A DNA stretch of 64,000 nt, taken from contig CACZFH010000003.1 of the NCBI GenBank assembly GCA_902780395.1, positions 2,333 to 66,332 of the forward strand. Reading direction: 5' to 3'. The stretch is from an uncultured Erysipelotrichaceae bacterium (GTDB lineage: Bacteria > Bacillota_I > Bacilli_A > RF39 > UBA660). Under the pieces are notes generated by a model, which searched no databases, was not told the origin of the DNA, and saw only the letters and a list, made by a program, of their open reading frames with translations. Positions 921 through 17,221 of this stretch are shown here, piece after piece; position 1 is the stretch's first letter; the number at the start of each line of letters is the position of its first letter. The position numbers and the translations under genes were made by a program.

Positions 921-1111
921 ATCTAAACCTCCTTTCTAAAAGAAATATTTATCTCTAATATAAAATATGTAGGAAGAAAAAGATTGTATAAGCAAATACC
1001 TACATTATAGAATATGATAAAAATGTAAATAAATGTAAAGAATAATAAAAAGACTTTTAATTGGAAATACTAATAGTATATAATGGGTTTAGAAAATATG
1101 GAGGTGAAAGA

Positions 1112-1399
1112 ATGCAAGAACCAGCAGATTTATTAGGGTTCAATATACCAGCATTAAAAGTTAAAATTGATGAAACCAAAACTCAAAATGGAAAAAATGT
1201 GAATAATAAGGAAAATCTAGAAAATTATATCACTGAAAAATTAGAGCCATTGTGGACAACAGAGGCAGGAAAAGAAGCAATACAATTATTAAGAGATTTT
1301 ATGGAAAATGATTATCAACCATATGTTGATTTCATAAATTTAGCAGTTGATAAATTAGAAATCGTAGTTGATTTATTGAATAACATTGATTACGCATAA
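1112..1399 (+). CDS. WXG100-size (95 aa) helical protein, putative T7SS substrate with a variant Trp motif (LWTTEAGKEA at aa 47-56)
   Basis: GGAGGTG SD favours ATG 1112 over the track start 1061. About 95 aa, acidic, helical-looking, with the Trp motif exactly mid-sequence. Lies in the T7SS-like locus. Confidence 0.45.
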   Translation: MQEPADLLGFNIPALKVKIDETKTQNGKNVNNKENLENYITEKLEPLWTTEAGKEAIQLLRDFMENDYQPYVDFINLAVDKLEIVVDLLNNIDYA

Positions 1400-1413
1400 T
1401 AGGAGGGAAAAGA

Positions 1414-1722
1414 ATGGCCGATAATAAATTAGCTTCAACATTAACAATTAAAGATAGTGTTGATTATTTAGAGAGTGAATTTTTAAAACCACTAAAAGAT
1501 ACTGGTGGAGAATTAATGGGAATAGTTGAAGCCATTAAAACAAAAGATCTTAAAAATGTTCAAATAGCTGAAACATTAGATACTATTAATTCAAAAATTG
1601 AAGATTATAATAAAAAACTAGAAGATATTATTAATAAATCTAGAGAACAACTTGCTACTAGTAGTGAAACAATTGCTAAGAATCAAGCAGAAATTGAAGC
1701 AAACTTAAATGAACTTGTATAA
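1414..1722 (+). CDS. 102-aa helical protein, WXG100 size class but without Trp (putative T7SS substrate/partner)
   Basis: Strong SD (AGGAGGG), 14 nt after the previous stop. Heptad-like helical sequence. Assignment rests on locus context only. Confidence 0.35.
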   Translation: MADNKLASTLTIKDSVDYLESEFLKPLKDTGGELMGIVEAIKTKDLKNVQIAETLDTINSKIEDYNKKLEDIINKSREQLATSSETIAKNQAEIEANLNELV

Positions 1723-1776
1723 GAAATAAAAAAAAATAATACTAGTAAGTATTATTTTTTAAGATAGGAGGAAAAA

Positions 1777-2070
1777 ATGGCAAAAGATGAATCAGTAAAA
1801 AAAGCAGTAGAAAAATTTAATGAAGATTTAAATGCTTTAGAAGAATTTGATGATAGCACACGCTATGAACCAGAAGTAAATTTAATGGATATTATAAATA
1901 ATTTAGCTGATATTTGGACTACTCAAAATGGTCAAAATATAACGTCAACACTTCGTAGTTTTGCTCGTGATAAAGTTAATAGTTCTCGTACAGAATATAA
2001 TGAAGGTATTCTTGTTTTTAAATATACAAAAATGTATTATTATGAAACAGATGATTATAAAATGGAATAA
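1777..2070 (+). CDS. WXG100-size (97 aa) helical protein, putative T7SS substrate with a variant Trp motif (IWTTQNGQN at aa 46-54)
   Basis: AGGAGG SD. The central WTTQNG motif is shared with ORF 1112-1399 (WTTEAG). Confidence 0.45.
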   Translation: MAKDESVKKAVEKFNEDLNALEEFDDSTRYEPEVNLMDIINNLADIWTTQNGQNITSTLRSFARDKVNSSRTEYNEGILVFKYTKMYYYETDDYKME

Positions 2071-2089
2071 TAAGGGGGATGATATTTAA

Positions 2090-3520
2090 ATGTCAGAAGT
2101 AAGTACGAAGAAAATACGCGAATATGCTGCTAGCTTAAGAGAAGCAGCAAAAAAAAGAGATCAAAAAGCAAGAGAATTATATGAAAAAATTGATGGTGTA
2201 AAAAAAGAATACAATAAAACAATGGCTCTTAATGGCCAAGTAATAAATAGTGAAATAAGGAATCTTGGAGAATCAGGAACACCTCATGAGTATTTAGTAA
2301 CAACAACTGCACATGTTTATTGTAATCCGGATGGAATATCAGAAGGAATTACGAAGATAGATAATGGTTATGTTGAGTATTGCAATGATATGTATAAAAT
2401 TTGTCAAATATGTGATTTGCTAGATGAAAGTGCAGAAGAAATAGATAGAAATTATGAAAAAATCAAAGAAGAATTAGAATCCATTATTGCCAAACCTGAT
2501 CATGAAGAATCAGATGAAGAACCAAAAACAGAGCCCGAAGAACCTGGAAAACCAGATGAAGAACCAAAGCCAGAGTCTGAAGAACCAAAATCAGATGAAG
2601 AACCAAAAACAGAGCCTGAAGAACCTGGAAAACCAGATGAAGAACCAAAGCCAGAGTCTGAAGAACCAAAGACAGAGCCTGAAGAACCAAAACCAGATGA
2701 AGAACCAAAGCCAGATTATAATCCTCCAAAGGGAACAACTCCATCAGAAGAAAAAACTGAGGGAGATAAACAAGAAAAAGCTGAAGGGGATAAACAAAAA
2801 AAATCAGAGGAAGAAACGAAGAATCCAAAGACTGATGAAGGTAACAAGCCAAAAGAAGAAACTACAACTAAAACAGAAACAAGCAAAGATTCTTCTAAAG
2901 AACCAAAAAAAGAAGAGCCAAGTACTGTTACTCCACCATCTGAAACTAAAACAGAAACAACAACTACAGAGCCACAGCAAGGAACTTATGTACCACCTGC
3001 AGAAACAAACAATAACAACAATTATAATAATTATTCAAATGAGACGCCAATTAATAATAATGTAGAAACAGGTGAAGAAACTATGACAACAGAGCCAGAG
3101 ATACCAAAAGGATCAGATGAAACAGCTCCTTCTCCAGAAGTACCTGATGACGAAATTGTCAAAGGCAATGAATATACTAAGATTCCAACTTCAGATACTC
3201 CAATTGAAACAAAACATAAATCTGGCAATGGTTTCATTCCAATTGCCGCTGGTTTAAGTGCTGCCGCTGCTGCAGGTATCGGTGCTAAAGTTTACATGGA
3301 TAGAAAAAATAATAATGACAATGGGGAAGATGATTTTACTTCCGAAGAATTAAATAGTGATGAAAGTACTATAAGTAATCAAATAGATAATAATACTCAG
3401 GAAGATACTAATAAGGATAATACCCCTGAAGAAGACAATATAAATAATGATGATTATAGTGCTAAACCAGAAAAATATGGTGCTAGAAACAATAATGAGA
3501 TAGCTGATCTACAACAATAG
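2090..3520 (+). CDS. 476-aa tail-anchored protein: helical N-domain, Pro/Glu/Lys- and Thr-rich repeat linker, Gly/Ala-zipper TM helix (FIPIAAGLSAAAAAGIGAKVY), acidic/Asn-rich tail
   Basis: AAGGGGG SD and a long ORF. Domain layout read directly from the translation. Function unknown; associated with the T7SS locus. Confidence 0.55.
   Translation: MSEVSTKKIREYAASLREAAKKRDQKARELYEKIDGVKKEYNKTMALNGQVINSEIRNLGESGTPHEYLVTTTAHVYCNPDGISEGITKIDNGYVEYCNDMYKICQICDLLDESAEEIDRNYEKIKEELESIIAKPDHEESDEEPKTEPEEPGKPDEEPKPESEEPKSDEEPKTEPEEPGKPDEEPKPESEEPKTEPEEPKPDEEPKPDYNPPKGTTPSEEKTEGDKQEKAEGDKQKKSEEETKNPKTDEGNKPKEETTTKTETSKDSSKEPKKEEPSTVTPPSETKTETTTTEPQQGTYVPPAETNNNNNYNNYSNETPINNNVETGEETMTTEPEIPKGSDETAPSPEVPDDEIVKGNEYTKIPTSDTPIETKHKSGNGFIPIAAGLSAAAAAGIGAKVYMDRKNNNDNGEDDFTSEELNSDESTISNQIDNNTQEDTNKDNTPEEDNINNDDYSAKPEKYGARNNNEIADLQQ
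2510..2716 (+). repeat. In-frame 81-bp tandem repeat, 2 full units plus a 45-bp partial unit, encoding (SDEEPKTEPEEPGKPDEEPKPESEEPK)n
   Basis: Units 2510-2590 and 2591-2671 are near-identical (1-2 substitutions). The partial third copy spans 2672-2716. Confidence 0.9.
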
Positions 3521-3524
3521 TCAA

Positions 3525-3610: not shown

Positions 3611-4117
3611 ATGGGAAAAGTAGATTGGATAACATGGAACACAGACTCAAGAGATATTATAAATCCAGATAAAACAGTAGAAAAAATACTTGAAATATAC
3701 CAAGACTATAATAGCTATATACAATCAAATATATATGAAATAATAAAAAAAGAGACTCAAATTGGTGGTATAGACAAAGCTTCAATTAATTTATATGGAG
3801 AATCTCCCGCTTATGAAAAAGCAATAAAAATTCTAAACCAAATAGATGAAATATCTCTTATTATGAATAATTTTATCAATAATATTAAATCTTCAACAGA
3901 AGAACAAAAAAAGCTAGAAAAGAATGATTTAATTAAGGCAATTGAAGATAAAATTGCCGAAGAAAAGAAAATCTTAGATAATACAGAGTTATTAAAAAGT
4001 AGAATAAGTATGTCTAATCAAGTAGTATCTATAGAAGAAGTAGAAGAGATAATAAAAATTAGTCACGATAAAATAAATCGTTTACAAGAAAGATTAGAAA
4101 TAGCAAAGAATATTTAA
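3611..4117 (+). CDS. 168-aa coiled-coil protein, T7SS-locus associated, function unknown
   Basis: AGGAGGT SD. Helical, Glu/Lys/Ile-rich sequence. Confidence 0.4.
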   Translation: MGKVDWITWNTDSRDIINPDKTVEKILEIYQDYNSYIQSNIYEIIKKETQIGGIDKASINLYGESPAYEKAIKILNQIDEISLIMNNFINNIKSSTEEQKKLEKNDLIKAIEDKIAEEKKILDNTELLKSRISMSNQVVSIEEVEEIIKISHDKINRLQERLEIAKNI

Positions 4118-4128: not shown

Positions 4129-4959
4129 ATGAATAATGGCTTTAATGTATGTTTAGATTTAGAAAAAATCCATAGTAGTTCTTCCATCGTTAGTAATATT
4201 CAAGATCAAGTATCATCTAGAGATTTATTAGATCCTTTTATTGAAATAGAAGAACAAATAAAAGAAATTAATTTCATTCATGGAAATTGTATTCCAAAGT
4301 ATAAAGAACCTATTACAGAAATAATAACTAAATTAAATGAGTTAAAAAAGGAAATATCTGAACTAGATTATGCTCTAAAAATGACATATACAGAGTTTTC
4401 TAAGACAGAAAAAATAGATAATAATGGAATATATAATATAGTAAAATTATATCCAAATCCTGATATAGAAGAGAAAATAAACAATATTATTGCTACTAAT
4501 CCAACTATTAAAGCCACTAATAGTTCTCTTCTTTTTAATCAATCACAAGCAACTATTAAAGAACCAAATTTTATTCAAAATAGTATATCAACTTTAGCTA
4601 GTGACATAAATGGTTCTATTAAAACCATTCCTCCAATAGAGCAAGAAGAACCAGCTAAACCAGAAATTAATACAGTACCAATAGGATTAGGAATTGCCGC
4701 AGCGGGAATTGCTGGAGCGACGGGAGCAGTAGCCCTAGATTATATATCTAAACCAAAGCAAGCCCATTTCGAATCATATCAAGAACCAATAGAATATCAA
4801 ACACAAAAAGAATCCCCAAAAATTCAAAATGGAGTAGAAAACCCACAAAGTTCAGAAAAAAAACAAGAAGAACAAAAACAATATCAAGCTAATCAAGATT
4901 TAAATCAATTAGATAAGTACTATAGTGATAAAGAACCTCGTGAAAATAATGAAGAATAA
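4129..4959 (+). CDS. 276-aa tail-anchored protein: helical N-domain, linker, Gly/Ala-zipper TM (VPIGLGIAAAGIAGATGAVAL), Gln/Glu-rich tail; same architecture as 2090-3520
   Basis: AAGGAGG SD. The TM segment shares a PI..G[LI][SA]AA core with the 476-aa protein. Confidence 0.5.
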   Translation: MNNGFNVCLDLEKIHSSSSIVSNIQDQVSSRDLLDPFIEIEEQIKEINFIHGNCIPKYKEPITEIITKLNELKKEISELDYALKMTYTEFSKTEKIDNNGIYNIVKLYPNPDIEEKINNIIATNPTIKATNSSLLFNQSQATIKEPNFIQNSISTLASDINGSIKTIPPIEQEEPAKPEINTVPIGLGIAAAGIAGATGAVALDYISKPKQAHFESYQEPIEYQTQKESPKIQNGVENPQSSEKKQEEQKQYQANQDLNQLDKYYSDKEPRENNEE

Positions 4960-4998: not shown

Positions 4999-5004
4999 TA
5001 CATA

Positions 5005-5224
5005 CAGATGCAAAGAATCTGAGGAGTAATTATATCTTTTTTTTAGAGAGTTCCTGGTAGGTGAAAAGGAATAAAAAAGAATAATGAAGGTAGCAGAGGA
5101 GCATATTTTCTGAAATTAATAGTAGGAAAATCCGGATAAATCCGTTATCAAAAGAAGCTATCAATAGATAGAAATTAAGGTGGTACCACGAACAATTCGT
5201 CCTTTGGATGAATTGTTTTTTTTT
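5005..5224 (+). promoter_or_regulatory. T-box riboswitch leader (tRNA-sensing antiterminator) upstream of the HD-hydrolase/valS operon
   Basis: AG-bulge AGAGA (5045-5049) and a distal loop with GGTAGGTGAAA. S-turn elements AGTA / GAA flank a specifier loop (GAAGGTAG, 5086-5093). T-box sequence AATTAAGGTGGTACCACG (5173-5190). Terminator AACAATTC/GAATTGTT (5191-5217) plus a T-run. Confidence 0.85.
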
Positions 5225-5234: not shown

Positions 5235-6008
5235 ATGGATATAGAACTAGCTAAACAAGAATTCACTAGCTTTGCTAATCTTTATCTTTCAAAAGAAGAT
5301 AAGAAAAGCAGTGACTATAAAAATTCACTTAGAAAATATAATCATTCTTTTCGAGTCATGAATTTGAGTGAAAAAATTGCTCAATCACTAGAATTACCCA
5401 AAGAAGAAATCGAATTAATGAAGTTATGTGGCTTATTACACGATATTGGTAGATTTGAACAAGGAATGAAATACCATATATTTGAAGATCAAAAAAGTAT
5501 AGATCACGGAGATTTAGGAGCAGAAATATTAAAAAAAGATAATTTAATTAATAAATTTGCCATGACAAATCAACAAGATATTATAAAAGTCGTCAAATAT
5601 CATAATAAATATATAATTCCTAAAACTTTACCTACTAAAACTAGATTTTATATAGATATAATTAGAGATGCTGATAAAATAGATATATTATATTCTCTAT
5701 CAACAGAAGAATTAATATATGAGAATGATAACAAAACTATTTCAGATGAAATATTTAAACAAATAAAAAAGAAAGAATTAGTTAATAAGATAAATATTCA
5801 ATCAAGTATAGATTGGGTAGTAGTAGATTTAGCTTTTGTTTTTGACCTAAAATTTAAAAAGTCTTTTGAGATTATGAAAGAAAAAAACTATCATAATAAA
5901 ATAATAAATATTTATTCTAAAAAGATTAAAAAAAAGGATGATTTAAAGAAATTAGAAGAAATAAGGATATTAATTAATAATTATATTGAGGAGATGTTAA
6001 CATGTTAG
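5235..6008 (+). CDS. HD-domain metal-dependent phosphohydrolase
   Basis: AGGAGG SD places the start at ATG 5235; the track start 5208 lies inside the terminator. HD signature H..R...LCGLLHDIGRFEQ. Stop overlaps the valS start. Confidence 0.6.
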   Translation: MDIELAKQEFTSFANLYLSKEDKKSSDYKNSLRKYNHSFRVMNLSEKIAQSLELPKEEIELMKLCGLLHDIGRFEQGMKYHIFEDQKSIDHGDLGAEILKKDNLINKFAMTNQQDIIKVVKYHNKYIIPKTLPTKTRFYIDIIRDADKIDILYSLSTEELIYENDNKTISDEIFKQIKKKELVNKINIQSSIDWVVVDLAFVFDLKFKKSFEIMKEKNYHNKIINIYSKKIKKKDDLKKLEEIRILINNYIEEMLTC

Positions 6009-8533
6009 ATAAAAAATATAATCATAAAGAAACGGAAAAAAATAAATATGAAATTTGGAAAGAAAAGGGCTATTTTAAGGCAGATAACACATCTGATAAA
6101 ACACCATTTTGTATTGTAATTCCACCACCTAATGTAACAGGAAAACTACATATAGGTCACGCTTATGATACATCTATTCAAGATGTTATTGTAAGATATA
6201 AAAGAATGAAAGGGTTTGATACTTTATGGCTTCCAGGTATGGATCATGCTGCCATTGCAACAGAAGCAAAAGTAGTAAAAAAATTAAAGGACCAAGGCAT
6301 TGATAAATATGAATATGGTAGAGAAAAATTTCTTGAGGCTTGTTGGGATTGGACTCATGAATATGGAGATAACATTCGTTCTCAATGGGCAGGTTTAGGT
6401 TTATCAGTTGATTATACTAGGGAAAGATTTACCTTAGATGAAGATTTAAATTATGCCGTAAGAAAAGTTTTTGTAGATTATTATAATAAAGGATTAATTT
6501 ATCGTGGTGAAAAAATCATAAACTGGGATCCAGCTGCTAAAACAGCATTATCAAATGAAGAAGTAATCTATAAGTCTGAAAAAAGTGCCTTCTATCACTT
6601 AAAATATAAATTAGAAGATAGTGATGAATACCTTGATGTAGCAACTACTCGTCCTGAAACTTTATTTGGAGATACAGCTGTTGCTGTAAATGAATTGGAT
6701 GAAAGATATAAAAAATTTGTTGGTAAAAATGTAATTTTACCAATTGTCAATAAACCAATTCCTGTTATTACTGATGAACATGCTGATATGACGAAAGGAA
6801 CAGGTTGTGTAAAAATCACTCCAGCCCATGACCCTAATGACTTTGAAGTGGGAAACCGTCATAATTTAGAAAGAATAGTTATCATGAATGATGATGCTAC
6901 TATGAATGAAAATGTTCCAAAAAAATATCAAGGAATGACTAGAGAAGAATGCCGTGAAGAAGTTCTAAAAGATTTAAAAGAACAAGATTTATTATTAGAA
7001 GTAGAACCATTAGTTCATGAAGTAGGACACTCTGAGAGAACAGGTGTTATGGTAGAACCAATGATAAAAAAACAATGGTTTGTAAAAATGGAACCATTAG
7101 CTAAAAGAGTTTTAGAATATCAAGCAGACAAAGCAAAAAAAGTTAATTTTGTTCCAAAAAGATTTGAAAAAGTATTAAAACATTGGATGGAAATTTCCTA
7201 TGATTGGTGCATTTCTCGTCAATTATGGTGGGGACATAGAATTCCTGCATGGTACAAAGAGGATAAAATATATGTTGGAATGGAAGCCCCTGATGAAGAA
7301 GGTTGGATTCAAGACGATGATGTTTTAGATACTTGGTTTTCCAGTGCCTTATGGCCATTTTCAACACTAGGTTGGCCAAAAGAAACTAAAGATTTTGAAA
7401 GATATTTTCCAACCAACTGCTTAGTAACCGGTTATGATATTATTTTCTTCTGGGTTGCTAGAATGACTTTCCAATCAGAATACATCACCAATCAAAGACC
7501 GTTTAATGATTGTGTAATTCATGGGTTAATTAGAGATAAGCAAGGAAGAAAAATGTCTAAATCATTAGGTAATGGGGTAGATCCATTTGATATGGTAGAT
7601 AAATATGGAGCAGATTCTCTTCGTTATTATTTATCAACAGATGGTTCAATGGGAATGGATTTACGTTTTGATGAAGTAAAATTAACAGCAACATGGAATT
7701 ACATTAATAAAATATGGAATGCTTCTCGTTTTGTCTTAATGAATATTGAAGATATAAAGAGAATAACATTAGAATATCTAAAGCCAGAAGATAAATGGAT
7801 TTTATCAAAATATGAACAAGTACTAAAAAGTGTAACTAAACATATGGATAAATATGAATTTAATTTAGCTGGAGCAGAGATTTATGATTTTACCTGGAAT
7901 ACATTCTGTGATTATTACATAGAAATGGCTAAATACTCTTTAGATTCAATGGCTACTAAATCAACATTATGTTATGTATTAACTGGTATTTTAAAAATGT
8001 TACATCCATTTATGCCATTTGTAACAGAAGAAATATATTCAATGTTACCAGTCAAAGATAGTGAATCTATCATGATTAGTGAATATCCTAAATATAACAA
8101 AAAATATATATTCAAAGAAGAAGAAAATGCCGTAGATGATACAGTTGAATTTATCAAGAATTTTAGGAATATAAAACAAGAAAATAATATTACCAAAGAA
8201 ATGAAAGTAATGTTTGATACTGAAGATAATAATGAATTAATAGTTAAAATGTTAAAACTAGAAAATAGTATTGTAAAAGAACCTCTTGGTATGAAAGCTT
8301 ATAAAGTATTTTCAAATAGAGTAAAAGCTCAAATATTCTTTGAAAAGATTGAAACAGAAGCTGAAAAAACTGCCAAAGAAGCTCAAATAAAATTATTGCA
8401 AGCATCAATAGAAAGAAGAGAAAAATTATTATCAAATGATAACTATGTTAAGAAAGCCCCTCAAAATATAGTAGAATTAGATAGACAAAAACTTAGAGAA
8501 GAAAAAGAAAAATTAAGTGAACTATTAAAATAA
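6002..8533 (+). CDS. valS: Valine--tRNA ligase
   Basis: 843 aa with class I motifs PPPNVTGKLHIGHA (HIGH) and KMSKSLGN (KMSKS), ValRS-type editing/CP1 region and a C-terminal coiled coil. Confidence 0.95.
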   Translation: MLDKKYNHKETEKNKYEIWKEKGYFKADNTSDKTPFCIVIPPPNVTGKLHIGHAYDTSIQDVIVRYKRMKGFDTLWLPGMDHAAIATEAKVVKKLKDQGIDKYEYGREKFLEACWDWTHEYGDNIRSQWAGLGLSVDYTRERFTLDEDLNYAVRKVFVDYYNKGLIYRGEKIINWDPAAKTALSNEEVIYKSEKSAFYHLKYKLEDSDEYLDVATTRPETLFGDTAVAVNELDERYKKFVGKNVILPIVNKPIPVITDEHADMTKGTGCVKITPAHDPNDFEVGNRHNLERIVIMNDDATMNENVPKKYQGMTREECREEVLKDLKEQDLLLEVEPLVHEVGHSERTGVMVEPMIKKQWFVKMEPLAKRVLEYQADKAKKVNFVPKRFEKVLKHWMEISYDWCISRQLWWGHRIPAWYKEDKIYVGMEAPDEEGWIQDDDVLDTWFSSALWPFSTLGWPKETKDFERYFPTNCLVTGYDIIFFWVARMTFQSEYITNQRPFNDCVIHGLIRDKQGRKMSKSLGNGVDPFDMVDKYGADSLRYYLSTDGSMGMDLRFDEVKLTATWNYINKIWNASRFVLMNIEDIKRITLEYLKPEDKWILSKYEQVLKSVTKHMDKYEFNLAGAEIYDFTWNTFCDYYIEMAKYSLDSMATKSTLCYVLTGILKMLHPFMPFVTEEIYSMLPVKDSESIMISEYPKYNKKYIFKEEENAVDDTVEFIKNFRNIKQENNITKEMKVMFDTEDNNELIVKMLKLENSIVKEPLGMKAYKVFSNRVKAQIFFEKIETEAEKTAKEAQIKLLQASIERREKLLSNDNYVKKAPQNIVELDRQKLREEKEKLSELLK

Positions 8534-8631
8534 TAAAAAAGAGACTATAAATAAAGTAGTAAAGTAAAAGTAGACAGTTTAAAAAAATTACTGTCTACTT
8601 TTTCTATGTTATTATTTAATAAAGGAGTGAT

Positions 8632-9006
8632 ATGATGGGAAGACCAAAAGGAACCAATAATAAAATGAGAACGCCAGAGGAAAAAGAAAAAATAGTTAAA
8701 GAGTATCTTGAGGGTGAATCGCCTGCTCGTTTAAATAGAAAATATGATTTACCTAATAAACTAATTTATCAGTGGATAAAAAAGTATGAAGATAATGGAT
8801 TTGATGGGCTTAAATCAAATACAGGTAAATATAGTACGGGTGGAAAAGGATTGCATTTCAAGAAACCAAAAAATAAAATTGAAGAACTTGAGTTAGAATT
8901 AATGAAGAAAGAAATAGAGATAGCCAGATTAAAAAAAGGCTATATGGTGAAAGGAGTTGGGGCCGAAAAGGAATTCGTTACTACATTCGACAAGAATACA
9001 AAATAG
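8632..9006 (+). CDS. IS3-family transposase OrfA (HTH domain)
   Basis: 124 aa with an HTH-like N-terminus and a leucine-zipper-like ELELELMKKEIEIARLKK. Slippery AAAAAAAG at 8931-8938. Confidence 0.85.
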   Translation: MMGRPKGTNNKMRTPEEKEKIVKEYLEGESPARLNRKYDLPNKLIYQWIKKYEDNGFDGLKSNTGKYSTGGKGLHFKKPKNKIEELELELMKKEIEIARLKKGYMVKGVGAEKEFVTTFDKNTK

Positions 9007-9038
9007 TAGATTATTGCAAACATAAATATTCTATCAAA

Positions 9039-9863
9039 ATGTTATGTGAGTATATGTCTATTAGTAGATCTGGATATTATAAATGGAAATATAGAAAAGA
9101 AAATCCTAGTTTAAAAGAAATCACAAGACAAAGTGATTTAGAATTAATTAAGAAAGTTCACAATAAACATAAAGCCCATGGTTATAGATGGATTAATAGG
9201 CATATTAGGAATCTATATGGGGTCTATTATACAGATAATTATGTTCATAGATTATGTAAGTATGAAAATATAAGATACCAAGGAAAGCATTACAAGTGGA
9301 AGAAACCAGATGAAGAACACGAAAAATTCAGTAATTTAGTATGGAATGGATGGAAGTATCTAACAAGACCATTCGAGGTAATAGTTTCGGACATGACATC
9401 GTTTAGGGTAAAAGGAACGTATTATGAACTAACAATGTACTTCGATGCGTGGAACAAGGAAATAATTGGTTATGGATTATCTTCTAGAAAAGGAGATAAA
9501 AGAAGTTACTATGATGGTTTAAACCAAGTTTTAAACAAAATAAAAGAAGAACAAATTGAAGACCCTATCATTTTGCATACCGACCAAGGCTCAGTTTATT
9601 CTTCTAAAAAATATAATAGTCTTCTAAATGAACTTAATATTCAACGATCAATGAGTCGAGCTGGAACACCAACAGATAATCCAGTAAATGAATCATTGAA
9701 TGGTTGGATTAAAGAAGAACTATTTATGGATTTCGATTTAAAACATTCTAATGACGTTCCAAATCTAATTAAATTATACATTGAATATTACAATAATGAA
9801 AGACCAAGCTATGCATTAAAATATAAAACCCCAATTCAATATAAACATGAATTAGGGTTCTAG
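9039..9863 (+). CDS. IS3-family transposase OrfB (DDE/rve integrase core), expressed as an OrfAB fusion by -1 frameshift
   Basis: DDE-type core (VSDMT..., HTDQGSVYSS, NPVNESLNGWIKEE). The orfB frame is open from the slippery site (8931) to 9039 and sits in the -1 frame relative to orfA. Confidence 0.85.
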   Translation: MLCEYMSISRSGYYKWKYRKENPSLKEITRQSDLELIKKVHNKHKAHGYRWINRHIRNLYGVYYTDNYVHRLCKYENIRYQGKHYKWKKPDEEHEKFSNLVWNGWKYLTRPFEVIVSDMTSFRVKGTYYELTMYFDAWNKEIIGYGLSSRKGDKRSYYDGLNQVLNKIKEEQIEDPIILHTDQGSVYSSKKYNSLLNELNIQRSMSRAGTPTDNPVNESLNGWIKEELFMDFDLKHSNDVPNLIKLYIEYYNNERPSYALKYKTPIQYKHELGF

Positions 9864-9990
9864 TAATTTTTTTAAACTGTCTATTTTTAGTTGACTAGTT
9901 TAAAAAAGTCTTTTTTTTTAGAAAAGTATTTAGTTTACTTTTTATTTATGATATACTTTATTCATAATAGGAGAATAGAAGGTGGAATAA

Positions 9991-12900
9991 ATGAGAATAT
10001 ACTTATTTTTAAATGATCGTCTTGTTACATTTACCTTACCAAAAAATCGTTTTGGTAGTTATACCTTCGACTATAATCCTTTGGAAGAAAGTAAATTAAT
10101 TAATATTGAAAATAGAAGTGGAAAATGGGTTTTATATGCTACAGAAGATGTAGAAGTATATACCTGTGAACAAGGAGTAAAAGAAACAGAGTTACTTCCT
10201 CAAAACTATTATTTCTTAAAAAGATTTGATATAACTTATTTAATATATGTAGTAAATGGTTTTGAAAATAATTTTTCACTATATAAATATAGTGATAATT
10301 ATACTATCACTATTGGTAAAGGAGAAGGTTGCAATGTTCAGTTTAATTGCCCTGTTATCAATGGAAAAGTATTGGAAATATCATTTGCTAATGACAAAAT
10401 TTGTTTAAAAAAAGGATCTGGAGTGAGAGTATATCGTAATGATTCCATGATTGATAATGAATCAGTTTATATTACTCAAGGAGATCGAATTAATTTATAT
10501 GGTTTAAAATTCATCTTTTTTAATGGTTGTATTCTTATAAACAAAATGCCAAATGTAAAATTTGATTATCAGCAATTAGGATTTAAACTAGGTGTTTTAA
10601 GACAAACCGAAGAAAAAAAAGATTTTGAAGTAAAAGATATTGATTTATATAAGCCAGAAGACTATTTTAATAAGTCTCCTCGGTTTAGAAGATTAATAGA
10701 AACCAAGAATATTAATCTAACAGCTCCACCATCTACCCAAGAAAAAGAAGAAATGCCATTATTATTAACAATAGCACCAATGCTTACAATGGCCATAACT
10801 TCTATTACAATGCTAGCTCAAACAGTTTCAAAATTACTAGATGGAACAGCAGATTTATATACAACATGGCCAAGTTTATTAGCAGCCATAGCTATGCTTT
10901 TATCAACTTTGTTATGGCCACGATTAATTAATAAATACCAAAAGAATCAAGAAAAAAAGAAACGAAAAGAATTAGTAGAAAAATATAAGGAATATTTAGA
11001 CAAAAAAAGAGCTGAATTAGAAGATGAAAAAATATTACAAAAAGAAATCATTATTGAAAATACAATCACAGTAAATGATTGCTTCAATAATATCAATGTA
11101 GGAAGATTAAACTTTTGGAGTAAAAGAGTAGAACAAAATGATTTTCTAAATGTTCGTTTAGGAATAGGAAATGAGTTATTAGATGTTGAAATCAATTATC
11201 CAGAAGAAGAATTTACAATTGAACAAGATGAATTAAAAAAAGAAGCTGATAAACTAGTAGAAGAATATAAGTATATAGAAAATGTTCCTCTAGGCTATTC
11301 ATTTGCTTCATGTAGAATAACTGGCATAATGGGTAATATTCATAAAATGTATGGATTGATGAATAATATAATACTTCAGTTAATATCTTTTTACAGTTAT
11401 GATGATGTAAAATTTGTAATATTAACCAATGAAAAGCATGCTAAAGCTTGGGAATATATGAAATATTTAAATCATACCTTTGATAATAATAAAGAAATAC
11501 GTTTCTTTTCAACAAACTATGAATCAGCAAAGAGAATAAATGATTATTTAAATATTGAACTACAACAACGATTATCATTACAAGGAGATGAAAAAAATCA
11601 AATTACCTTTAGACCACACTATATTATTATTACAGATGATTATACTCAAATAAAAGGCTTATCATTTATTAAAAGTTTAGTAGAAACAGATGTTTCTCTA
11701 GGATTTAGCTTTATTATTATGGAAAATACTCTAAGTAAATTACCAAGTAAATGTAATAATTTTATTTCTTTAGGAGATACATCATCATCTTTACTAAGAA
11801 ATTCTTATGAACAACAAGAACAACAATTATTTAAGGATGAAATTGTCTATAATATTGATATGAAATCAGTAGTTGAGAAAATATCAAATATTCCAGTAGC
11901 ATTCCAAGAAGGAAATAAGATGCTACCTGAATCGATTACTTTCTTAGAGATGGAAAAAGTAGGTAAAGTAGAACAATTAAATATCTTAGATAGATGGCAT
12001 AATAACGATTCTACCCAAAGCCTAAAAGCAGAAATTGGTGTAGATGCTGAAGGAAATTTAATGTATTTAGATTTACATGAAAAGTATCATGGACCACATG
12101 GCTTAATTGCCGGTATGACTGGTTCTGGTAAATCCGAATTTATTATTACTTATATTTTATCAATGGCTGTTAATTATAGTCCAGATGATGTAGCCTTTAT
12201 TTTAATTGACTACAAAGGTGGTGGACTAGCCTTTGCTTTTGAAAATAAGTCTTCGGGAATTGTTCTCCCACACTTAGCTGGAACCATAACAAACTTGGAT
12301 AAGGCCGAAATGAATCGTACCTTAGTAAGTATAGATAGTGAAATAAAAAGACGTCAAACACTATTTAATGCTGCTAGAGATAAACTAGGAGAGAGTACAA
12401 TTGATATTTATAAATATCAAGGCTTCTATCATGAAGGAAAATTAGATGAACCATTACCACACTTATTTATAATATGTGATGAGTTTGCTGAATTAAAGAG
12501 CCAACAACCAGATTTTATGGACAATTTAATTAGTGTTGCCCGTATTGGACGTTCCTTAGGAGTACACTTAATTTTAGCAACTCAAAAACCAAGTGGTGTT
12601 GTAAATGATCAAATTTGGTCTAATACAAAATTTAGAGTCTGCTTGAAAGTACAAGATACAAGTGACTCTAATGAAATGCTAAAAAAACCAGATGCTGCTA
12701 GTATCAAGCAAACAGGACGTTTTTATCTCCAAGTAGGGTATGATGAATACTTTGCTTTAGGTCAATCTGGCTGGGCAGGAGCCAAATATTTCCCATCAGA
12801 AAAAATAATAAAACAAGCAGATAAGAGTATAAATATTATTGATGATACAGGTAGTTTCATTAAAAGTATGCAAGCTAGTAACAATACTAGAATAGAAGCT

Positions 12901-14568
12901 CAAGGAGAGCAACTAGCTGCTATTTTAAATAAAGTGATTGAAGTAGCTGAAAGTGAACACAAAAAAGTTAAGAAATTATGGCTTGAAAATGTTCCCGCTA
13001 AGATTTTCTATAATGAATTAGCTTCTAAATATAAAGTAGAATTCAATCAAAACGATGTGGACATGATTATCGGAGAATATGATGCCCCAGAAAGTCAAAA
13101 ACAAGGATTAGTTCATTATAATTTAAGAGAGCAAGGAAATACTCTAATATATGGTAATGATGGAGAAGAAAGAGAAAAATGTATAAATGCTTTATTATAT
13201 TCTGCTTTTAAAAATTATACAGCTGAAGAGTTAAATGTATATTTAGTAGACTATGGTTCAGAAGTAACTCGTATGTTTGCAGAATTTCCACAATTTGGTG
13301 GAATGGTTTTTGCTGGAGACGATGAAAGACTTAAGAATTCACTAAATTTAATTGTCAAAGAAATTGCTTATAGAAAAAAAGCTTTTGTATCATACGGTGG
13401 TTCTTTTGAAGAATATAATAAGAATAATGAAGAAAAATTACCACAAATACTATATATTATGAATAATTATGAAGGAATAGATGAAGTTTATCCAAATCTA
13501 AGTGAGGATTTAACTAGTATTTGTAGAGATTGTACTAGATATGGAATATACTTTATCATTACTCTAAGTAACCCTTCTACACTACCAAGAAGAGCAAGAT
13601 TATCTTTTACAAATACAATTGCTTTCCACTTCTCAGATTCTTCTCAATATGAAGATGTATTTGATTTAAGATGTAGAATAAGACCAAAAGATATTTCAGG
13701 AAGAGGCTTAACCATTTGTGAAGGAGCAATTCATGAATTTCAAACCTTCTCAATTTCCGATGAAAATCATTCAGATAATGATATTGTTAAAGAATTATTA
13801 AAAGAGGTTAAAACAAAGAATACAACAGTTGCTAAAAAAATACCAGAATTACCTGATCGTGTAACCTTGGATATAATTGAAAAAGATATAAAGGATTATA
13901 ATTCAATCCCAATTGGAGTATATCGTAATTCTTTAAAGACAGCATTTATTGAGCTATCTAATATACCAATTTACACAATGAGTTCTGTTCGTTTACCATA
14001 TATGAACGCTTTTATAGAATCTTTTATGACAGTATTAAAAAGGATACCAAATTGCAGTGTAATATTTGTAGATGTCCAAAAGCAAGTACCAAAAATAAAG
14101 GATATTTGTCTGAACTATTTTGATGATAATCTATCTGCAGTAATTGAAAAAATGATTAAAATAGAAGAAGATCTAAATAATAGAAGTAAGCATTTCATCT
14201 ATGTATTCTATGGAATAGAAAAACTACCAAAAAAAGTACCAAATAAACAAATTCTAGAAAAATTAGTAAATCATGTTAAGAATAATGAACATAGTAATAT
14301 GATAATATGTGATTCTAATAAAGGTTTAAGAGAACTTGATGGAGAATCATGGTACTATAATGCTAGAAACAATACAGATGGATTATGGATAGGAAAAGGT
14401 GTAGATGATCAACAAGTATTAAAGATTAATAGAATAACAAAAGAAATGAGTAAGAACTATACCAACAATTATGGATATCTTGATGTTGATAGTACTCCAG
14501 AACTAGTAAAATTAATAGAATTTGCGGAAATCATTGAAGAGGAGGCAGAACAAGAAAATGAAGAATAA
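9991..14568 (+). CDS. essC: Type VII secretion FtsK/SpoIIIE-family ATPase, EssC/YukB-like
   Basis: 1525 aa with an N-terminal FHA-like region and two TM helices (aa ~256-312). First ATPase domain has Walker A GMTGSGKSE (nt 12112-12138) and Walker B LFIICDEFAEL. Two further FtsK-like domains have degenerate P-loops. Confidence 0.85.
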   Translation: MRIYLFLNDRLVTFTLPKNRFGSYTFDYNPLEESKLINIENRSGKWVLYATEDVEVYTCEQGVKETELLPQNYYFLKRFDITYLIYVVNGFENNFSLYKYSDNYTITIGKGEGCNVQFNCPVINGKVLEISFANDKICLKKGSGVRVYRNDSMIDNESVYITQGDRINLYGLKFIFFNGCILINKMPNVKFDYQQLGFKLGVLRQTEEKKDFEVKDIDLYKPEDYFNKSPRFRRLIETKNINLTAPPSTQEKEEMPLLLTIAPMLTMAITSITMLAQTVSKLLDGTADLYTTWPSLLAAIAMLLSTLLWPRLINKYQKNQEKKKRKELVEKYKEYLDKKRAELEDEKILQKEIIIENTITVNDCFNNINVGRLNFWSKRVEQNDFLNVRLGIGNELLDVEINYPEEEFTIEQDELKKEADKLVEEYKYIENVPLGYSFASCRITGIMGNIHKMYGLMNNIILQLISFYSYDDVKFVILTNEKHAKAWEYMKYLNHTFDNNKEIRFFSTNYESAKRINDYLNIELQQRLSLQGDEKNQITFRPHYIIITDDYTQIKGLSFIKSLVETDVSLGFSFIIMENTLSKLPSKCNNFISLGDTSSSLLRNSYEQQEQQLFKDEIVYNIDMKSVVEKISNIPVAFQEGNKMLPESITFLEMEKVGKVEQLNILDRWHNNDSTQSLKAEIGVDAEGNLMYLDLHEKYHGPHGLIAGMTGSGKSEFIITYILSMAVNYSPDDVAFILIDYKGGGLAFAFENKSSGIVLPHLAGTITNLDKAEMNRTLVSIDSEIKRRQTLFNAARDKLGESTIDIYKYQGFYHEGKLDEPLPHLFIICDEFAELKSQQPDFMDNLISVARIGRSLGVHLILATQKPSGVVNDQIWSNTKFRVCLKVQDTSDSNEMLKKPDAASIKQTGRFYLQVGYDEYFALGQSGWAGAKYFPSEKIIKQADKSINIIDDTGSFIKSMQASNNTRIEAQGEQLAAILNKVIEVAESEHKKVKKLWLENVPAKIFYNELASKYKVEFNQNDVDMIIGEYDAPESQKQGLVHYNLREQGNTLIYGNDGEEREKCINALLYSAFKNYTAEELNVYLVDYGSEVTRMFAEFPQFGGMVFAGDDERLKNSLNLIVKEIAYRKKAFVSYGGSFEEYNKNNEEKLPQILYIMNNYEGIDEVYPNLSEDLTSICRDCTRYGIYFIITLSNPSTLPRRARLSFTNTIAFHFSDSSQYEDVFDLRCRIRPKDISGRGLTICEGAIHEFQTFSISDENHSDNDIVKELLKEVKTKNTTVAKKIPELPDRVTLDIIEKDIKDYNSIPIGVYRNSLKTAFIELSNIPIYTMSSVRLPYMNAFIESFMTVLKRIPNCSVIFVDVQKQVPKIKDICLNYFDDNLSAVIEKMIKIEEDLNNRSKHFIYVFYGIEKLPKKVPNKQILEKLVNHVKNNEHSNMIICDSNKGLRELDGESWYYNARNNTDGLWIGKGVDDQQVLKINRITKEMSKNYTNNYGYLDVDSTPELVKLIEFAEIIEEEAEQENEE

Positions 14569-14833
14569 AGTTCTAGTAAAAATATTTATACCAGAAGTTG
14601 ATTCTGATTTTGATGTATATATTCCTGTCAATGAAATAATATGGAAAATCAAGAAGTTAGTTTCAAAATGTGCATCAGATCTAACGGGAGGAAATTTTGA
14701 TTTTTCCAAAGAATATGTTTTCTTAAATTCTAAAACAGGACAATTATACAGAGAAAATGATATTGTCATCAATACAGATATTAGAAATGCTACAGAATTA
14801 ATCTTAATATCAGTCAATGAAATAGCAATATAG
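14558..14833 (+). CDS. YukD/EsaB-like small ubiquitin-fold protein (T7SS accessory)
   Basis: 91 aa from ATG 14558 (GAGGAGG SD at 14540-14546), overlapping the essC stop. The pattern VLVKIFIP....FDVYIPVNEIIWKIKKLV ... NATELILI resembles B. subtilis YukD as recalled. Confidence 0.55.
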   Translation: MKNKVLVKIFIPEVDSDFDVYIPVNEIIWKIKKLVSKCASDLTGGNFDFSKEYVFLNSKTGQLYRENDIVINTDIRNATELILISVNEIAI

Positions 14834-14856
14834 AAGCTTATTTAAGCTTCTTTTTT
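14832..14856 (+). terminator. Rho-independent terminator after essC/yukD-like
   Basis: Stem AGAAGCTT / AAGCTTCT with a 4-nt loop and a T-run. Confidence 0.7.
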
Positions 14857-14887
14857 GTAAACAATATGTAAATAAAAAAAAATATAT

Positions 14888-14915
14888 TTGAAAGATAAAA
14901 ATGCTATGATATAAT
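14888..14915 (+). promoter_or_regulatory. Candidate sigma-A promoter for the 14974-17221 substrate operon
   Basis: TTGAAA (14888-14893), 16-nt spacer containing TGa, TATAAT (14910-14915). Confidence 0.45.
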
Positions 14916-14973
14916 AACAATAGATATAGTATATCTATAATAATATATAATATAGAAAATAGGAGGATTTATT

Positions 14974-15717
14974 ATGTTTGGATTATTTGGTGATGATATA
15001 TCAGGATACAATAAGGAAGAAATAGAAAAAAAACTAACCAGCACACTTAATGAGCTATTAGCAGAAATAGGAAAAATAGTAACAACGGATCTTAAAGCTG
15101 GGCTTGTTGACCCAATCTCAACAAAATGGTATGCAAAAGAAGCTCAAGACTATTTTAATGATGTAGTAGCCCCACATGTTTATAATTCAGGAATTGCAAT
15201 TAGAGGACTTTTACAAGATTTTTCTGATGCCATTGAAAAAAGTGGACAAAGATGGTCTTTAAGAACTGGAAATGAAGCACCTAAATTGGGTGAAATTAAT
15301 AGTATCGGTTCAAGTTTTAAGCTAGATGTATCAGCTATACAGAAAACTGCAGAAGGTGGGGCGGCTGTTTTATATGAAAAAGATGTAAACGATATTGCAA
15401 CAGGTTTAACTAAAGTTGAAGACCAAATAAATGACGAAATTAAAGCACTAGGTAATAAAATGGATGCTAGTACTTCATTCCTAGGACATGGCCAAGCTGA
15501 AGCACTTAAAGGCTGTTTAGATAAAATAATAGCAGAAATACATAAAATGTTTCAGAGTTTCTTAAGTGACGGTGAAACTTCAATAGCAACTCAATTACAA
15601 AAGTTCAAGGAAAAATATGCTACTGCCGCTAAAGCTGAGAAACAAATGTGGGATAATACGGAAGTTACTATAACTCAAGAAACACCTTCAGGTGCAGCTC
15701 CAGTCACAACGGAATAA
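14974..15717 (+). CDS. 247-aa helical protein; looks like two fused WXG100-like modules (putative T7SS substrate)
   Basis: AGGAGG SD. Motif KWYAKEAQDYF at aa 51-61 and FLGHGQAEALK at aa 169-179, each centred in a ~100-aa helical half. Confidence 0.4.
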   Translation: MFGLFGDDISGYNKEEIEKKLTSTLNELLAEIGKIVTTDLKAGLVDPISTKWYAKEAQDYFNDVVAPHVYNSGIAIRGLLQDFSDAIEKSGQRWSLRTGNEAPKLGEINSIGSSFKLDVSAIQKTAEGGAAVLYEKDVNDIATGLTKVEDQINDEIKALGNKMDASTSFLGHGQAEALKGCLDKIIAEIHKMFQSFLSDGETSIATQLQKFKEKYATAAKAEKQMWDNTEVTITQETPSGAAPVTTE

Positions 15718-15840
15718 ATATGATGCAAACACAGTAGAAGTATTAAAATATATAATTAGAAAGAAAAAAGATTGTAGAAATATAATCTTTTTCCAAATAT
15801 ATAATAATTTTATTATGTATTTGGAAGGAGATTAGTGGCC

Positions 15841-16734
15841 ATGGAAGTAAATGTTAAATTAGTAAGAGCAAGTTATGAATCCTTAAAAGCTGAATATGAA
15901 TCTCTTGAAGACATTGAATTAAACTTATTTTCATCTATAGGAAATATAAATAGTTTTGATTGGATTGATGGTAATTCAATGGATTTTGCTAAAGCTATTG
16001 AACCAGAAAAACTAGAAATAGATACATTTCAAATGTATGTTTTTAGTTTGATAAAAATATTCAATGATATATATAATTCATACAAAACATTAGGAAAAAA
16101 GATTAAATGTAATTTAGATAAAAAAAATGCTGTAATTACTTCCATCAATAATAATATATCAATAGTAGAATCAATTCTTAATGAGTATAATAGAACAGAT
16201 TTAGATTTTCCATATGGAGAATTTAGTACACTAAGAGGTTGTAAGAATAACTACAAAGAGATTAAGAAAAAATTAATAAATATGAAAGAGTATTTTAATT
16301 CTTTATTTTCTAAAATAAGTGAATTAGAAGTCCACATTGCTAATAAGATTAGAGAAATAGAAGAGTTTACTCCAAAAGAATTTGAATTTAATCTTTTTGC
16401 TAAAAGACCTCTTCATGATTTTGACAAAGGATATTTATTATATAATGATTTTGATTTAGATTATAAAAAAGTAGTATACTATAAAAATGCAGAAAAAGAT
16501 TCAAATCAAAATATTTATACAGGAATGAAAAATATAAAGGATTCCTATATTTCTAAGAATAATAATGCCTATCTTACTAATGTAGAAAACTATAAGAAAG
16601 ATTTCTTAGCACTATTTGTAAAAAGAAATAAATACATAAAATCATTAAGTGAAGTACCAACTTTATATGATAAAACAGCTATGGATACGATAACAACATT
16701 TGAGGAGGAAGAAATATGTACGACGGAGAAATAG
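15841..16734 (+). CDS. ~297-aa protein with a WXG/LXG-superfamily-like helical N-terminus (SFDWIDGNSMDFAKAI) and an uncharacterised C-terminal region; putative T7SS effector
   Basis: GGAAGGAG SD at 15823-15830 favours ATG 15841 over GTG 15835. N-terminal pattern and locus context support the call. Overlaps the next ORF by 19 nt. Confidence 0.35.
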   Translation: MEVNVKLVRASYESLKAEYESLEDIELNLFSSIGNINSFDWIDGNSMDFAKAIEPEKLEIDTFQMYVFSLIKIFNDIYNSYKTLGKKIKCNLDKKNAVITSINNNISIVESILNEYNRTDLDFPYGEFSTLRGCKNNYKEIKKKLINMKEYFNSLFSKISELEVHIANKIREIEEFTPKEFEFNLFAKRPLHDFDKGYLLYNDFDLDYKKVVYYKNAEKDSNQNIYTGMKNIKDSYISKNNNAYLTNVENYKKDFLALFVKRNKYIKSLSEVPTLYDKTAMDTITTFEEEEICTTEK

Positions 16735-16961
16735 AAGACTTAGAGAGAGTGTTAGACCATATTTATTCTATTAGAGAAAAAACCAAAGATTTAATTAAGG
16801 GAATGTATGCAATGGATGAAAAAATAACAGATAATTGCCTAATAAATGATGAAAATCCCAAGAAATCAGATATAGAAAACATTATAGATGATTTAGAAGA
16901 TAATGTTTCAGATTATACAAACTATGTAATACCAAGACTAGATGATAAAATAGAAAGCTAG
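16716..16961 (+). CDS. 81-aa acidic protein (candidate effector chaperone or immunity protein)
   Basis: GAGGAGG SD, translationally coupled to 15841-16734. N-terminal EIEDLERVLDHI motif is shared with the next ORF. Confidence 0.35.
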   Translation: MYDGEIEDLERVLDHIYSIREKTKDLIKGMYAMDEKITDNCLINDENPKKSDIENIIDDLEDNVSDYTNYVIPRLDDKIES

Positions 16962-16969
16962 GTGATAAA

Positions 16970-17221
16970 ATGTTTGAAGGATTAGAAAGCGTTAACGACT
17001 TAGAAAGAATGCTACGAATGCTTGAAGTAGCATATATTGAGCAACATGGCTTGGATGTAGATGATGAAAAAAGTAAAGATTTGTTTCCAGATGACTGGGA
17101 AATTGATAAAAATTATGATGAAAAGATCGATATTATAGTAGCAGCTATTGATAAAGAAGAAATAATAGTTAACACTGATGAATATCAGAATTATAAAGGA
17201 GATTTTTTTAACTCGAAATAG
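16970..17221 (+). CDS. 83-aa acidic protein (candidate effector chaperone or immunity protein)
   Basis: SD-like AGGTGA. N-terminal SVNDLERMLRMLE motif is paralogous to the previous ORF. Confidence 0.35.
   Translation: MFEGLESVNDLERMLRMLEVAYIEQHGLDVDDEKSKDLFPDDWEIDKNYDEKIDIIVAAIDKEEIIVNTDEYQNYKGDFFNSK

Follow-up and report, generated by a model that had tools for sequence, protein, structure and literature searches.

The stretch of DNA analysed here (64,000 nt of contig CACZFH010000003.1, henceforth the window) comes from an uncultured gut bacterium of the class Bacilli with a GC content of ~27%, and it carries what we read as a lineage-specific type VII secretion system (T7SS) variant in two separate parts: a machinery module, essC-G-H-I-J (9991-16961), and a cargo island, genes A-F (1112-4959). 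We put the probability of this reading at about 0.6. An earlier note on this DNA had proposed a minimal or divergent T7SS. Its main thrust holds, with amendments: the cargo island has to be told apart from the module, D and F are better treated as cargo, and WXG100 proteins are not demonstrated. The premise that the locus is built on an EssC-type ATPase stands on matches to the EssC model TIGR03928 and to YukB.

The product of essC is a true EssC. In domain scans with Pfam and NCBIfam, which covered all open reading frames (ORFs) of positions 1-21710 and, beyond them, the large ORFs without an assignment, it scores 946.4 bits against NCBIfam TIGR03928 (cutoff 778.4) and matches Pfam FtsK_SpoIIIE (1.9e-34) and, barely over the cutoff, FHA (residues 106-169; 21.5 bits against 20.7). 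Its closest PDB chain is Bacillus subtilis YukB (3.5e-123). Transmembrane segments span residues 257-275 and 295-313, the Walker A motif GMTGSGKS lies at residue 708 and the Walker B motif LFIICDEFAEL at 825; the size, FHA-like N-terminus, membrane helices, P-loop and Walker B motif behind the original EssC/YukB assignment are all where they had been described. Canonical Walker A is confined to the first ATPase domain (D1) in 78 of 80 EssCs of the lineage, and in the second domain (D2) the window's EssC has 'YGNDGEEREK' (residues ~1040-1060) opposite the 'FGSAGYGKST' of D2 in the solved Geobacillus EssC. The lineage-wide loss of the D2 P-loop indicates that these EssCs have diverged from those studied so far.

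An ATPase with a Pfam FtsK_SpoIIIE domain and an insertion sequence (IS) nearby might instead be a conjugative or chromosome-segregating DNA translocase of the FtsK/SpoIIIE type, the grouping that the earlier note had set against EssC. The model scores effectively refute this identity: 57.6 bits against FtsK (cutoff 1566) and 18.6 against plasmid TraB (cutoff 800) fall far under the cutoffs, and the EssC score, 946 against 778, lies over its own. The three-domain EssC layout, the FHA N-terminus, the coupled gene for a ubiquitin-like (Ubl) protein and the toxin loci around essC in relatives argue the same way, and we give a DNA translocase practically no weight.

Relatives of the locus define the module. 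For synteny we took 79 essC loci from species-representative genomes, each with 10 kb on either side of essC, and clustered all neighbouring ORFs. Companion genes keep a fixed order with essC in these genomes: clusters c2 (G), c3 (H), c1 (I) and c5 (J). None of the G-, H-, I- and J-type companions has a transmembrane segment, upstream neighbours of essC are heterogeneous and unrelated between genomes, and apart from EssC no membrane protein is conserved in the loci. The nearest reference genomes, whose EssCs are 37-57% identical to that of the window, are metagenome-assembled genomes (MAGs) labelled uncultured Bacilli, 'Tenericutes' or Erysipelotrichaceae, together with Clostridium sp. CAG:417 and Candidatus Onthousia. 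Proteins of the window have exact copies on human and animal metagenome contigs, and all 8 contigs bearing an identical EssC share the window's layout.

Gene G encodes a ubiquitin-like partner of the ATPase. Its first 11 nt coincide with the end of essC, which would fit coupled translation of the two genes. The AlphaFold model of G (63-sequence alignment; predicted local distance difference test, pLDDT, 91.2) has the order beta-beta-alpha-beta...beta, and its best Foldseek match in the PDB is the Ubl domain of EccD5 from mycobacterial ESX-5 (7np7_D2; E 2.1e-5, TM-score 0.68), followed by ubiquitin, SUMO and Hub1. The family (c2, ~91 aa) is present in 75 of 80 loci. YukD was not matched by G (Pfam and NCBIfam) or by 46 family members, nor by the family profile among PDB sequences; 12 of the 46 show weak matches to UBL_UBAC1. 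Because of its predicted beta-grasp fold and its position beside essC, G is taken as the EsaB/YukD/TsxB equivalent, outside the YukD family by sequence. The earlier description of a YukD/EsaB-like ORF overlapping the essC stop is therefore right in the overlap and at the level of fold, but not as a match to YukD hidden Markov models (HMMs). The family has 1546 related clusters (90% identity; E <= 0.001); among the 120 listed, none has a Pfam domain or an informative name and the few named ones are 'hypothetical'. Relatives of H are likewise nameless, as foreseen in the suggestion that standard annotation would leave these ORFs hypothetical.

Within 1-21710, which takes in the locus with its flanks, and among the unassigned large ORFs, models of EssB/YukC, EsaA/YueB, EssA and WXG100 found no match, and the 79 loci hold no conserved neighbour of essC that is EssB-sized or contains a transmembrane segment. 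The claim that EssB, EsaA and EssA are not recognisable here is thus upheld. In the 2.4 kb upstream of the window, which hold a divergent ftsW/spoVE and an ORF cut by the contig end and without a Pfam record, no EssB, EsaA or EssA is recorded. Several candidates were rejected: ORFs of 250-460 aa just upstream of essC in relatives are too heterogeneous and mutually unrelated to be EssB; the 1534-aa ORF at 40232-44836 is PolC; and the 1000-aa ORF at 59910-62912, the only one of ~1000 aa, is SMC. Other large ORFs of the window encode PNPase, a C39-ABC exporter and similar proteins.

These searches bear on the nearest competing explanation, an ordinary T7SSb with essB, esaA, essA and esxA elsewhere on the chromosome, in which the window would hold the essC-esaB end of a scattered system. 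Such a system would suit an EssC that passes the equivalog TIGR03928 and keeps its FHA region, and the DNA inspected comprised the window plus 2.4 kb and 10 kb to either side of essC in relatives. We nevertheless consider it unlikely. The essB, esaA and essA genes of described T7SSb systems cluster with essC (PMC11217815), whereas in the 79 relatives no gene that is EssB-sized or encodes a transmembrane segment is conserved within 10 kb; the genes that accompany essC there are H, I and J, and the EssC D2 P-loop has been lost across the lineage.

H, I and J are the soluble companions that hold this place. The AlphaFold model of H (pLDDT 80) has helices at residues 14-49 and 55-98, a linker, helices at 135-166 and 172-197, and then a fifth helix, which for H bears out the earlier view that the small ORFs are all-helical. 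Trp52, the sole invariant residue of the wider family, lies in the first turn within the motif W-Y-A-K-E-A-Q-D-Y-F. The WXG100 signature is W-x-G-x-x-A-x-x-F; that of H, W-x-A-x-x-A-x-x-Y-F, is similar, with Ala replacing Gly. Sub-threshold matches include NCBIfam ESAT6_2 and WXG100_ESAT6 for H, Pfam WXG100 for 3 of 45 family members and one distant relative and, for the H profile among PDB sequences, EsxA and EsxB (first half), ESAT-6 (second half) and an LXG chain. The family (c3, ~217 aa) is kept in 55 loci, and an exhaustive profile search recovered 267 clusters in 1.84 billion proteins, mostly of 215-245 aa (H-type chains are 215-250 aa). A few proteins of 359-740 aa bear the H domain N-terminally, as would be the case if a targeting domain had been joined to cargo; in a Pfam scan of these long proteins the extensions matched no family and no cargo domain was identified. 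From its predicted structure, H is a candidate fused WXG100-like core substrate or adaptor.

I joins two genes that most relatives keep apart (~186 and ~100 aa; c1, 51 loci). Its alignment has an invariant Trp in W-x-D-x-x-S-x-x-F, with Tyr, Gly and Glu also conserved; 2 of 34 family members weakly match WXG100 and 1 of 34 LXG. Aligned with H by hhalign, I shows similarity over a short N-terminal stretch around the Trp (E 5e-4, probability 30%). J matches the profile of c5 (~81 aa, 33 loci) at E 2.3e-8 and no family in Pfam, NCBIfam or PDB sequences, and the I and J profiles gave only marginal or coiled-coil matches among PDB sequences. We infer that these three helical proteins serve, in place of EsxA, as core substrates or adaptors: H would amount to two WXG-like hairpins in one chain and I to a helical domain of the LXG-like kind that lacks a toxin.

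Beyond the module, the relatives' loci carry variable genes. Cluster c6 encodes DUF4176 proteins (E about 1e-24), a family of chaperones that bind the disordered middle region of T7SSb toxins (PMC12478183). Cluster c4 encodes proteins of 400-2500 aa that lack a Pfam LXG domain and end in ADP-ribosyltransferase, transglutaminase-like or metallophosphoesterase domains. Given these variable DUF4176 genes and giant toxin-like proteins, the relatives' loci are working T7SS toxin loci. The N-terminal targeting region of the c4 proteins appears to be of a new type; hhalign showed no relation between it and the families of H and I, F or the N-terminus of D. In 7 of 79 loci the gene for a soluble Ser/Thr kinase (c19; Pfam Pkinase 4.3e-19; for example L020:19270-20022) separates the H gene from the toxin-immunity region. 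As a separate observation, c4 giants (such as L033:17481-21296, L045:15214-17664 and L074:15608-19786) pair with DUF4176 genes.

The second part of the system is the island A-F, whose larger products, D and F, are probably cargo. The C-terminal module of D (3107-3517) consists of YTKIPTS..PI, a Gly/Ala-zipper helix IPIAAGLSAAAAAGIGAK and an acidic tail ending in ..KYGARNNNEIADLQQ. D has a single Gly/Ala-rich hydrophobic transmembrane helix, at residues 381-399 (zipper GFIPIAAGLSAAAAAGIGA), and F likewise has one, at residues 183-201 (VPIGLGIAAAGIAGATGAV), in agreement with the zipper helices first described for the pair. The D-type zipper is conserved across 15 aligned proteins, and 20 database proteins carry the module. 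Across 13 database proteins the alignment stays conserved to the extreme C-terminus, ...EKYGARNNEELADLQ, a pattern that suggests a signal function for the acidic tail or its binding to a conserved partner. The tail of F aligns loosely with the D-type module, at 26% identity overall.

Small acidic proteins accompany D and F. In all ten ORFs among A-F and H-K acidic residues outnumber basic ones and a GGAGG-type Shine-Dalgarno sequence is present, confirming what had been said of about ten such ORFs; the start of the first, placed at 1061 in the earlier note, is most likely 1112, as in the L001 gene call. A and C share a mid-sequence WTTxxG motif. Neither has a match in Pfam, NCBIfam or the PDB; B found nothing meaningful among PDB sequences and has weak helical-family matches only (ApoLp-III 3.5e-4, under the cutoff). 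B occurs on 16 metagenome contigs, and its similarity to the N-terminus of H (z 5.9) is the best of the weak pairwise similarities among the small ORFs. The proposal that the ORFs of ~100 aa belong to the WXG100 class therefore holds for their size and for the mid-sequence Trp of A and C, but the motif is W-T-T-x-x-G and no HMM matches. No family match was found for E.

Links between the island and T7SS come from its counterparts elsewhere. When A-F and K were compared with the 79 relatives' essC neighbourhoods (BLAST, phmmer and cluster profiles), the only match was the C-terminus of D, in L064. There a 398-aa protein, which stands at the end of a T7SS locus after three small ORFs, matches D over the C-terminal ~120 residues of D. 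It is built in the way of D: the N-terminal domain is followed by a long stretch of low complexity, then by YTKIPTS..PI...IPVIAGLSAAAAAGIGAKAY and last by an acidic tail. In close relatives, D- and F-like genes are interleaved with DUF4176 genes. L087 has, in order, a D-like gene, DUF4176, an E orthologue (41% identical and in the same position), an F orthologue, DUF4176, HD and valS (valS 90% identical to that of the window); its F-type protein, of 389 aa, is 34% identical to the N-terminus of F and is followed by DUF4176. The order in L086 is ftsW, cotZ, small ORFs, a D-like gene and DUF4176, and in L088 ftsW, three small ORFs, a 410-aa ORF and the D-type C-terminus. From these contexts, the island occupies a fixed chromosomal spot, between cotZ and T-box-HD-valS, with variable content.

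Glycine zippers have precedents among T7SSb membrane toxins: TelE has one at its C-terminus (PMC10434224) and is accompanied by several small partner proteins (bioRxiv 10.64898/2026.03.12.711312), and EsxX has C-terminal glycine-zipper helices as well (PMC12744356). Because DUF4176 genes are interleaved with their counterparts in close relatives, a D-type protein occurs in the L064 T7SS locus and such toxins have glycine zippers, we read D and F as cargo. By analogy they are probably membrane-active T7SS cargo of the TelE/EsxX/TspA type, secretion and toxicity being part of that analogy. A, B, C and E may be targeting or stabilising (Lap-like) partners or immunity factors.

D and F, perhaps with A-C and E, might alternatively be lineage-specific membrane components that replace EssA, EssB and EsaA and are anchored by their Gly/Ala-zipper helices. 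They are the only proteins near essC in the window that contain a transmembrane segment, their C-terminal module and tail are as well conserved as a part docking on a conserved partner should be, and the Pro/Glu-rich middle could span the cell wall. They are, however, absent from 78 of 79 relatives that keep essC-G-H-I-J, have only 20 database homologues and show the hallmarks of cargo (duplication, variable N-termini and DUF4176 pairing in L086 and L087), which makes a role as components improbable. The earlier note had left open whether D and F are components or substrates; their few close relatives and DUF4176 linkage favour substrates, and a lineage-wide component does not fit.

It is equally improbable that the island is unrelated to T7SS, an envelope or sporulation-associated set that lies 5 kb from essC by chance. 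A housekeeping operon and an IS element do intervene before essC, the island adjoins cotZ and ftsW/spoVE genes, and A-F match no T7SS HMM; yet a D-type protein stands inside the L064 T7SS locus, and DUF4176 genes are interleaved with D-like and F-like genes in L086 and L087.

Several observations weigh against a separate T7SS variant with its own cargo. The main caveat is that other parts of these genomes could carry essB, esaA and essA; EssC, moreover, retains the FHA region and passes a T7SSb-type model. For the module, Foldseek matched H to generic helical bundles only (maquette, ferritin-like; TM-score <= 0.27), and no HMM assigns H, I, J, A, B or C to the WXG100, LXG or Lap family. For the island, D and F match no Pfam or NCBIfam family, LXG included, and their N-termini are unrelated to those of the relatives' toxins; the window's island lacks a DUF4176 gene as well as any obvious membrane immunity protein. 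Finally, D-type proteins combine a conserved C-terminus with a varying N-terminus; classic polymorphic toxins show the opposite pattern, but the zipper is kept among TelE variants too.

The island and the module are separated by a T-box leader, an HD-domain gene, valS and an IS3-family element (Table 1). The end of the HD gene overlaps the start of valS by 7 nt; because the two overlap after the T-box, the T-box appears to control an HD-valS operon. HD-valS adjoins an A-F-type island in L087 too. The HD protein is 42% identical to its L087 orthologue, against 90% for valS. The IS3 element has 41-nt terminal inverted repeats (8552-8592 and 9862-9902) that are 90% complementary, AAA on both flanks, HTH_28 and HTH_Tnp_1 domains in orfA and rve and rve_3 in orfB; its two ORFs lie 32 nt apart rather than overlapping, and it had no close match in a plasmid collection. 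This element is the only evident insertion in the region. The earlier note had described the locus as cut in two by these elements: they are real and the split is physical, but it is not one machine that was broken, as the module is intact downstream.

Table 1. Features of the island, the intervening genes and the module (window coordinates)
Feature	Position	Strand	Description
A	1112..1399	+	95 aa; acidic protein, WTTEAG mid-sequence; candidate small helper of D
B	1414..1722	+	102 aa; acidic protein; candidate helper
C	1777..2070	+	97 aa; acidic protein, WTTQNG mid-sequence; candidate helper
D	2090..3520	+	476 aa; probable membrane-active T7SS cargo; N-terminal domain, Pro/Glu/Lys-rich low-complexity middle, C-terminal module
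E	3611..4117	+	168 aa; soluble; candidate partner of F, as helper or immunity protein
F	4129..4959	+	276 aa; second probable cargo; Gly/Ala-zipper helix
T-box leader	5004..5207	+	Housekeeping, outside the T7SS; Rfam RF00230, 141.8 bits
HD-domain gene	5235..6008	+	Pfam HD 2.6e-15
valS	6002..8533	+	Pfam tRNA-synt_1/Anticodon_1
IS3-family insertion sequence	8552..9902	+	Complete; orfA 8635-9006, orfB 9039-9863; between valS and essC
essC	9991..14568	+	1525 aa; EssC/TsxC motor ATPase; FHA-containing N-terminus, 2 transmembrane helices, three FtsK-like domains, of which D1 alone has canonical Walker A and B motifs
G	14558..14833	+	91 aa; beta-grasp ubiquitin-like protein; EsaB/YukD/TsxB equivalent by fold and position
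H	14974..15717	+	247 aa; soluble protein; two predicted helix-turn-helix hairpins and a fifth helix
I	15841..16734	+	297 aa (299 aa from GTG 15835); conserved essC companion
J	16716..16961	+	81 aa; acidic protein; last conserved module member
K	16970..17221	+	83 aa; acidic protein; conserved in closest relatives only

K, which follows the module, is 87-96% identical in L090 and L092 and has no counterpart in the 79 relatives' essC loci. Further downstream (17524-21188) come a 474-aa RelA/SpoT-like protein (HD_4 and RelA_SpoT) and a 725-aa protein with ~16 transmembrane segments and no known family; both are conserved in L090-L092 only, and the 725-aa protein has no linkage to essC in relatives. 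A C39-peptidase ABC transporter of the bacteriocin-exporter type lies at 27111-29225, with an unassigned 281-aa ORF upstream (26061-26906). The organism also has sporulation and cell-wall genes (cotZ, yqfD, ftsW/spoVE, mreC and mreD). Two essC modules occur in some relatives (L071, L076, and L009 with L069), as a tandem pair on a single contig or spread over two contigs from the same MAG. Contigs with a Bacilli-type essC module in L007, L010, L026, L068 and L077 are filed as uncultured Muribaculaceae or Methanobacteriaceae MAGs, labels that probably reflect mis-binning or mislabelling of the assemblies.

In the mechanism that we propose, EssC would be a membrane ATPase in which D1 alone is catalytically competent, the module would be self-sufficient without EssB, EsaA and EssA, and the island would supply the membrane-active effectors D and F together with small acidic partners or immunity factors. 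A stronger version, which we regard as possible but doubtful, would make essC, G, H, I and J a complete, self-sufficient subtype distinct from T7SSa-j: EssC would be its sole membrane subunit and H would replace the EsxA dimer, and it would be widespread in uncultured Bacilli of the mammal and bird gut, exporting non-LXG polymorphic toxins and Gly/Ala-zipper proteins.

A natural system of this kind bears on how T7SSb moves folded substrates through membrane and wall, and on the share that EssB, EsaA, EssA and EsxA each have in it. If the present reading is true, EssC and a Ubl protein without the other canonical parts would form a minimal working core and a simpler target for structural reconstitution. 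The T7SSc-j catalogue would extend into an abundant uncultured gut lineage, and large hypothetical families (G, H, I, J and the D-type zipper module) would gain names. The D-type module may itself be a new family of membrane-active effectors for competition among gut commensals.

Among known cargo, the closest comparison for D and F is with TelE of Streptococcus gallolyticus and with EsxX and TspA of Staphylococcus aureus, which are membrane-depolarising. D and F share with these a non-membrane domain at the N-terminus, followed by a long middle and, at the C-terminus, a zipper of small residues (as in TelE and EsxX). Like TelE, which follows Gallo_0559 and Gallo_0560, they are preceded by small proteins, and the relatives' copies pair with DUF4176. 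They differ in lacking a Pfam LXG domain, detectable sequence similarity and a recognisable immunity gene, and in having an extra conserved acidic tail of ~75 aa after the zipper. H, for its part, resembles WXG100 proteins and EsxA-EsxB dimers in its two consecutive hairpins, the Trp at the first turn, a size of two WXG100 units and a fixed position in the core module; unlike them it is a single chain, with sub-threshold HMM matches and without a significant EsxA-type structural match.

The T7SSb systems (Ess of S. aureus, Yuk of B. subtilis) comprise EssC/YukB, EsaB/YukD, EssB/YukC, EsaA/YueB, EssA/YueC and EsxA/YukE. The window resembles them in an EssC that passes the T7SSb-type model, its FHA N-terminus and the adjacent Ubl gene, and its relatives do so further in the DUF4176 chaperones and polymorphic toxins downstream. 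It differs in having no EssB, EsaA, EssA or recognisable WXG100 protein, none of which is conserved near essC in the 79 relatives either, a Ubl protein outside the YukD HMMs, an EssC without the D2 P-loop and three unrelated soluble companions, H, I and J, and the relatives' toxins differ in lacking a Pfam LXG domain. In T7SSb the FHA region of EssC binds EssB (PMC11217815).

Systems without EssB, EsaA and EssA are already known: at least eight further Gram-positive arrangements, T7SSc-j, were described by Garrett, Higginson and Palmer in 2024 (PMC11217815). The ATPase is common to all of them, the ubiquitin-like TsxB to nearly all, and a clear WXG100 protein, TsxA, to every one but T7SSi (PMC11217815). 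That survey drew on RefSeq (PMC11217815), where uncultured MAGs of the present lineage are probably scarce; in the literature we found no later extension of the scheme and no description of a T7SS in this lineage. The accessory genes of T7SSc-j are not conserved here: TsxD kinase, TsxF PPM phosphatase, TsxJ DUF6382-FHA, TsxI Ig-like giant, TsxL beta-propeller, TsxG EspG-like, TsxV AAA+ and TsxE vWA; the sole conserved neighbours of essC, c1, c2, c3 and c5, lack the Pfam domains of these genes. The kinase found in 7 of 79 relatives' loci recalls those of T7SSc, d, e and j. T7SSg has a comparably small number of genes, but its ATPase lacks the FHA region that the window's EssC has. As in T7SSi, no clear TsxA is found in the window's module.

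Measured against a broad definition of T7SS (TsxC, TsxB and TsxA), the module has the ATPase and, at the level of fold, the Ubl protein; for the core WXG100 protein the signs are mixed, as no ORF reaches the WXG100 thresholds, while H has two predicted hairpins and sub-threshold matches but no structural match. As far as gene content can tell, the module comes under the general definition yet corresponds to no named subtype. A T7SS without EssB, EsaA and EssA was published as an idea in 2024 and is hence no new category; with T7SSc-j the window shares the principle of a TsxC ATPase, a TsxB Ubl protein and lineage-specific accessory genes.

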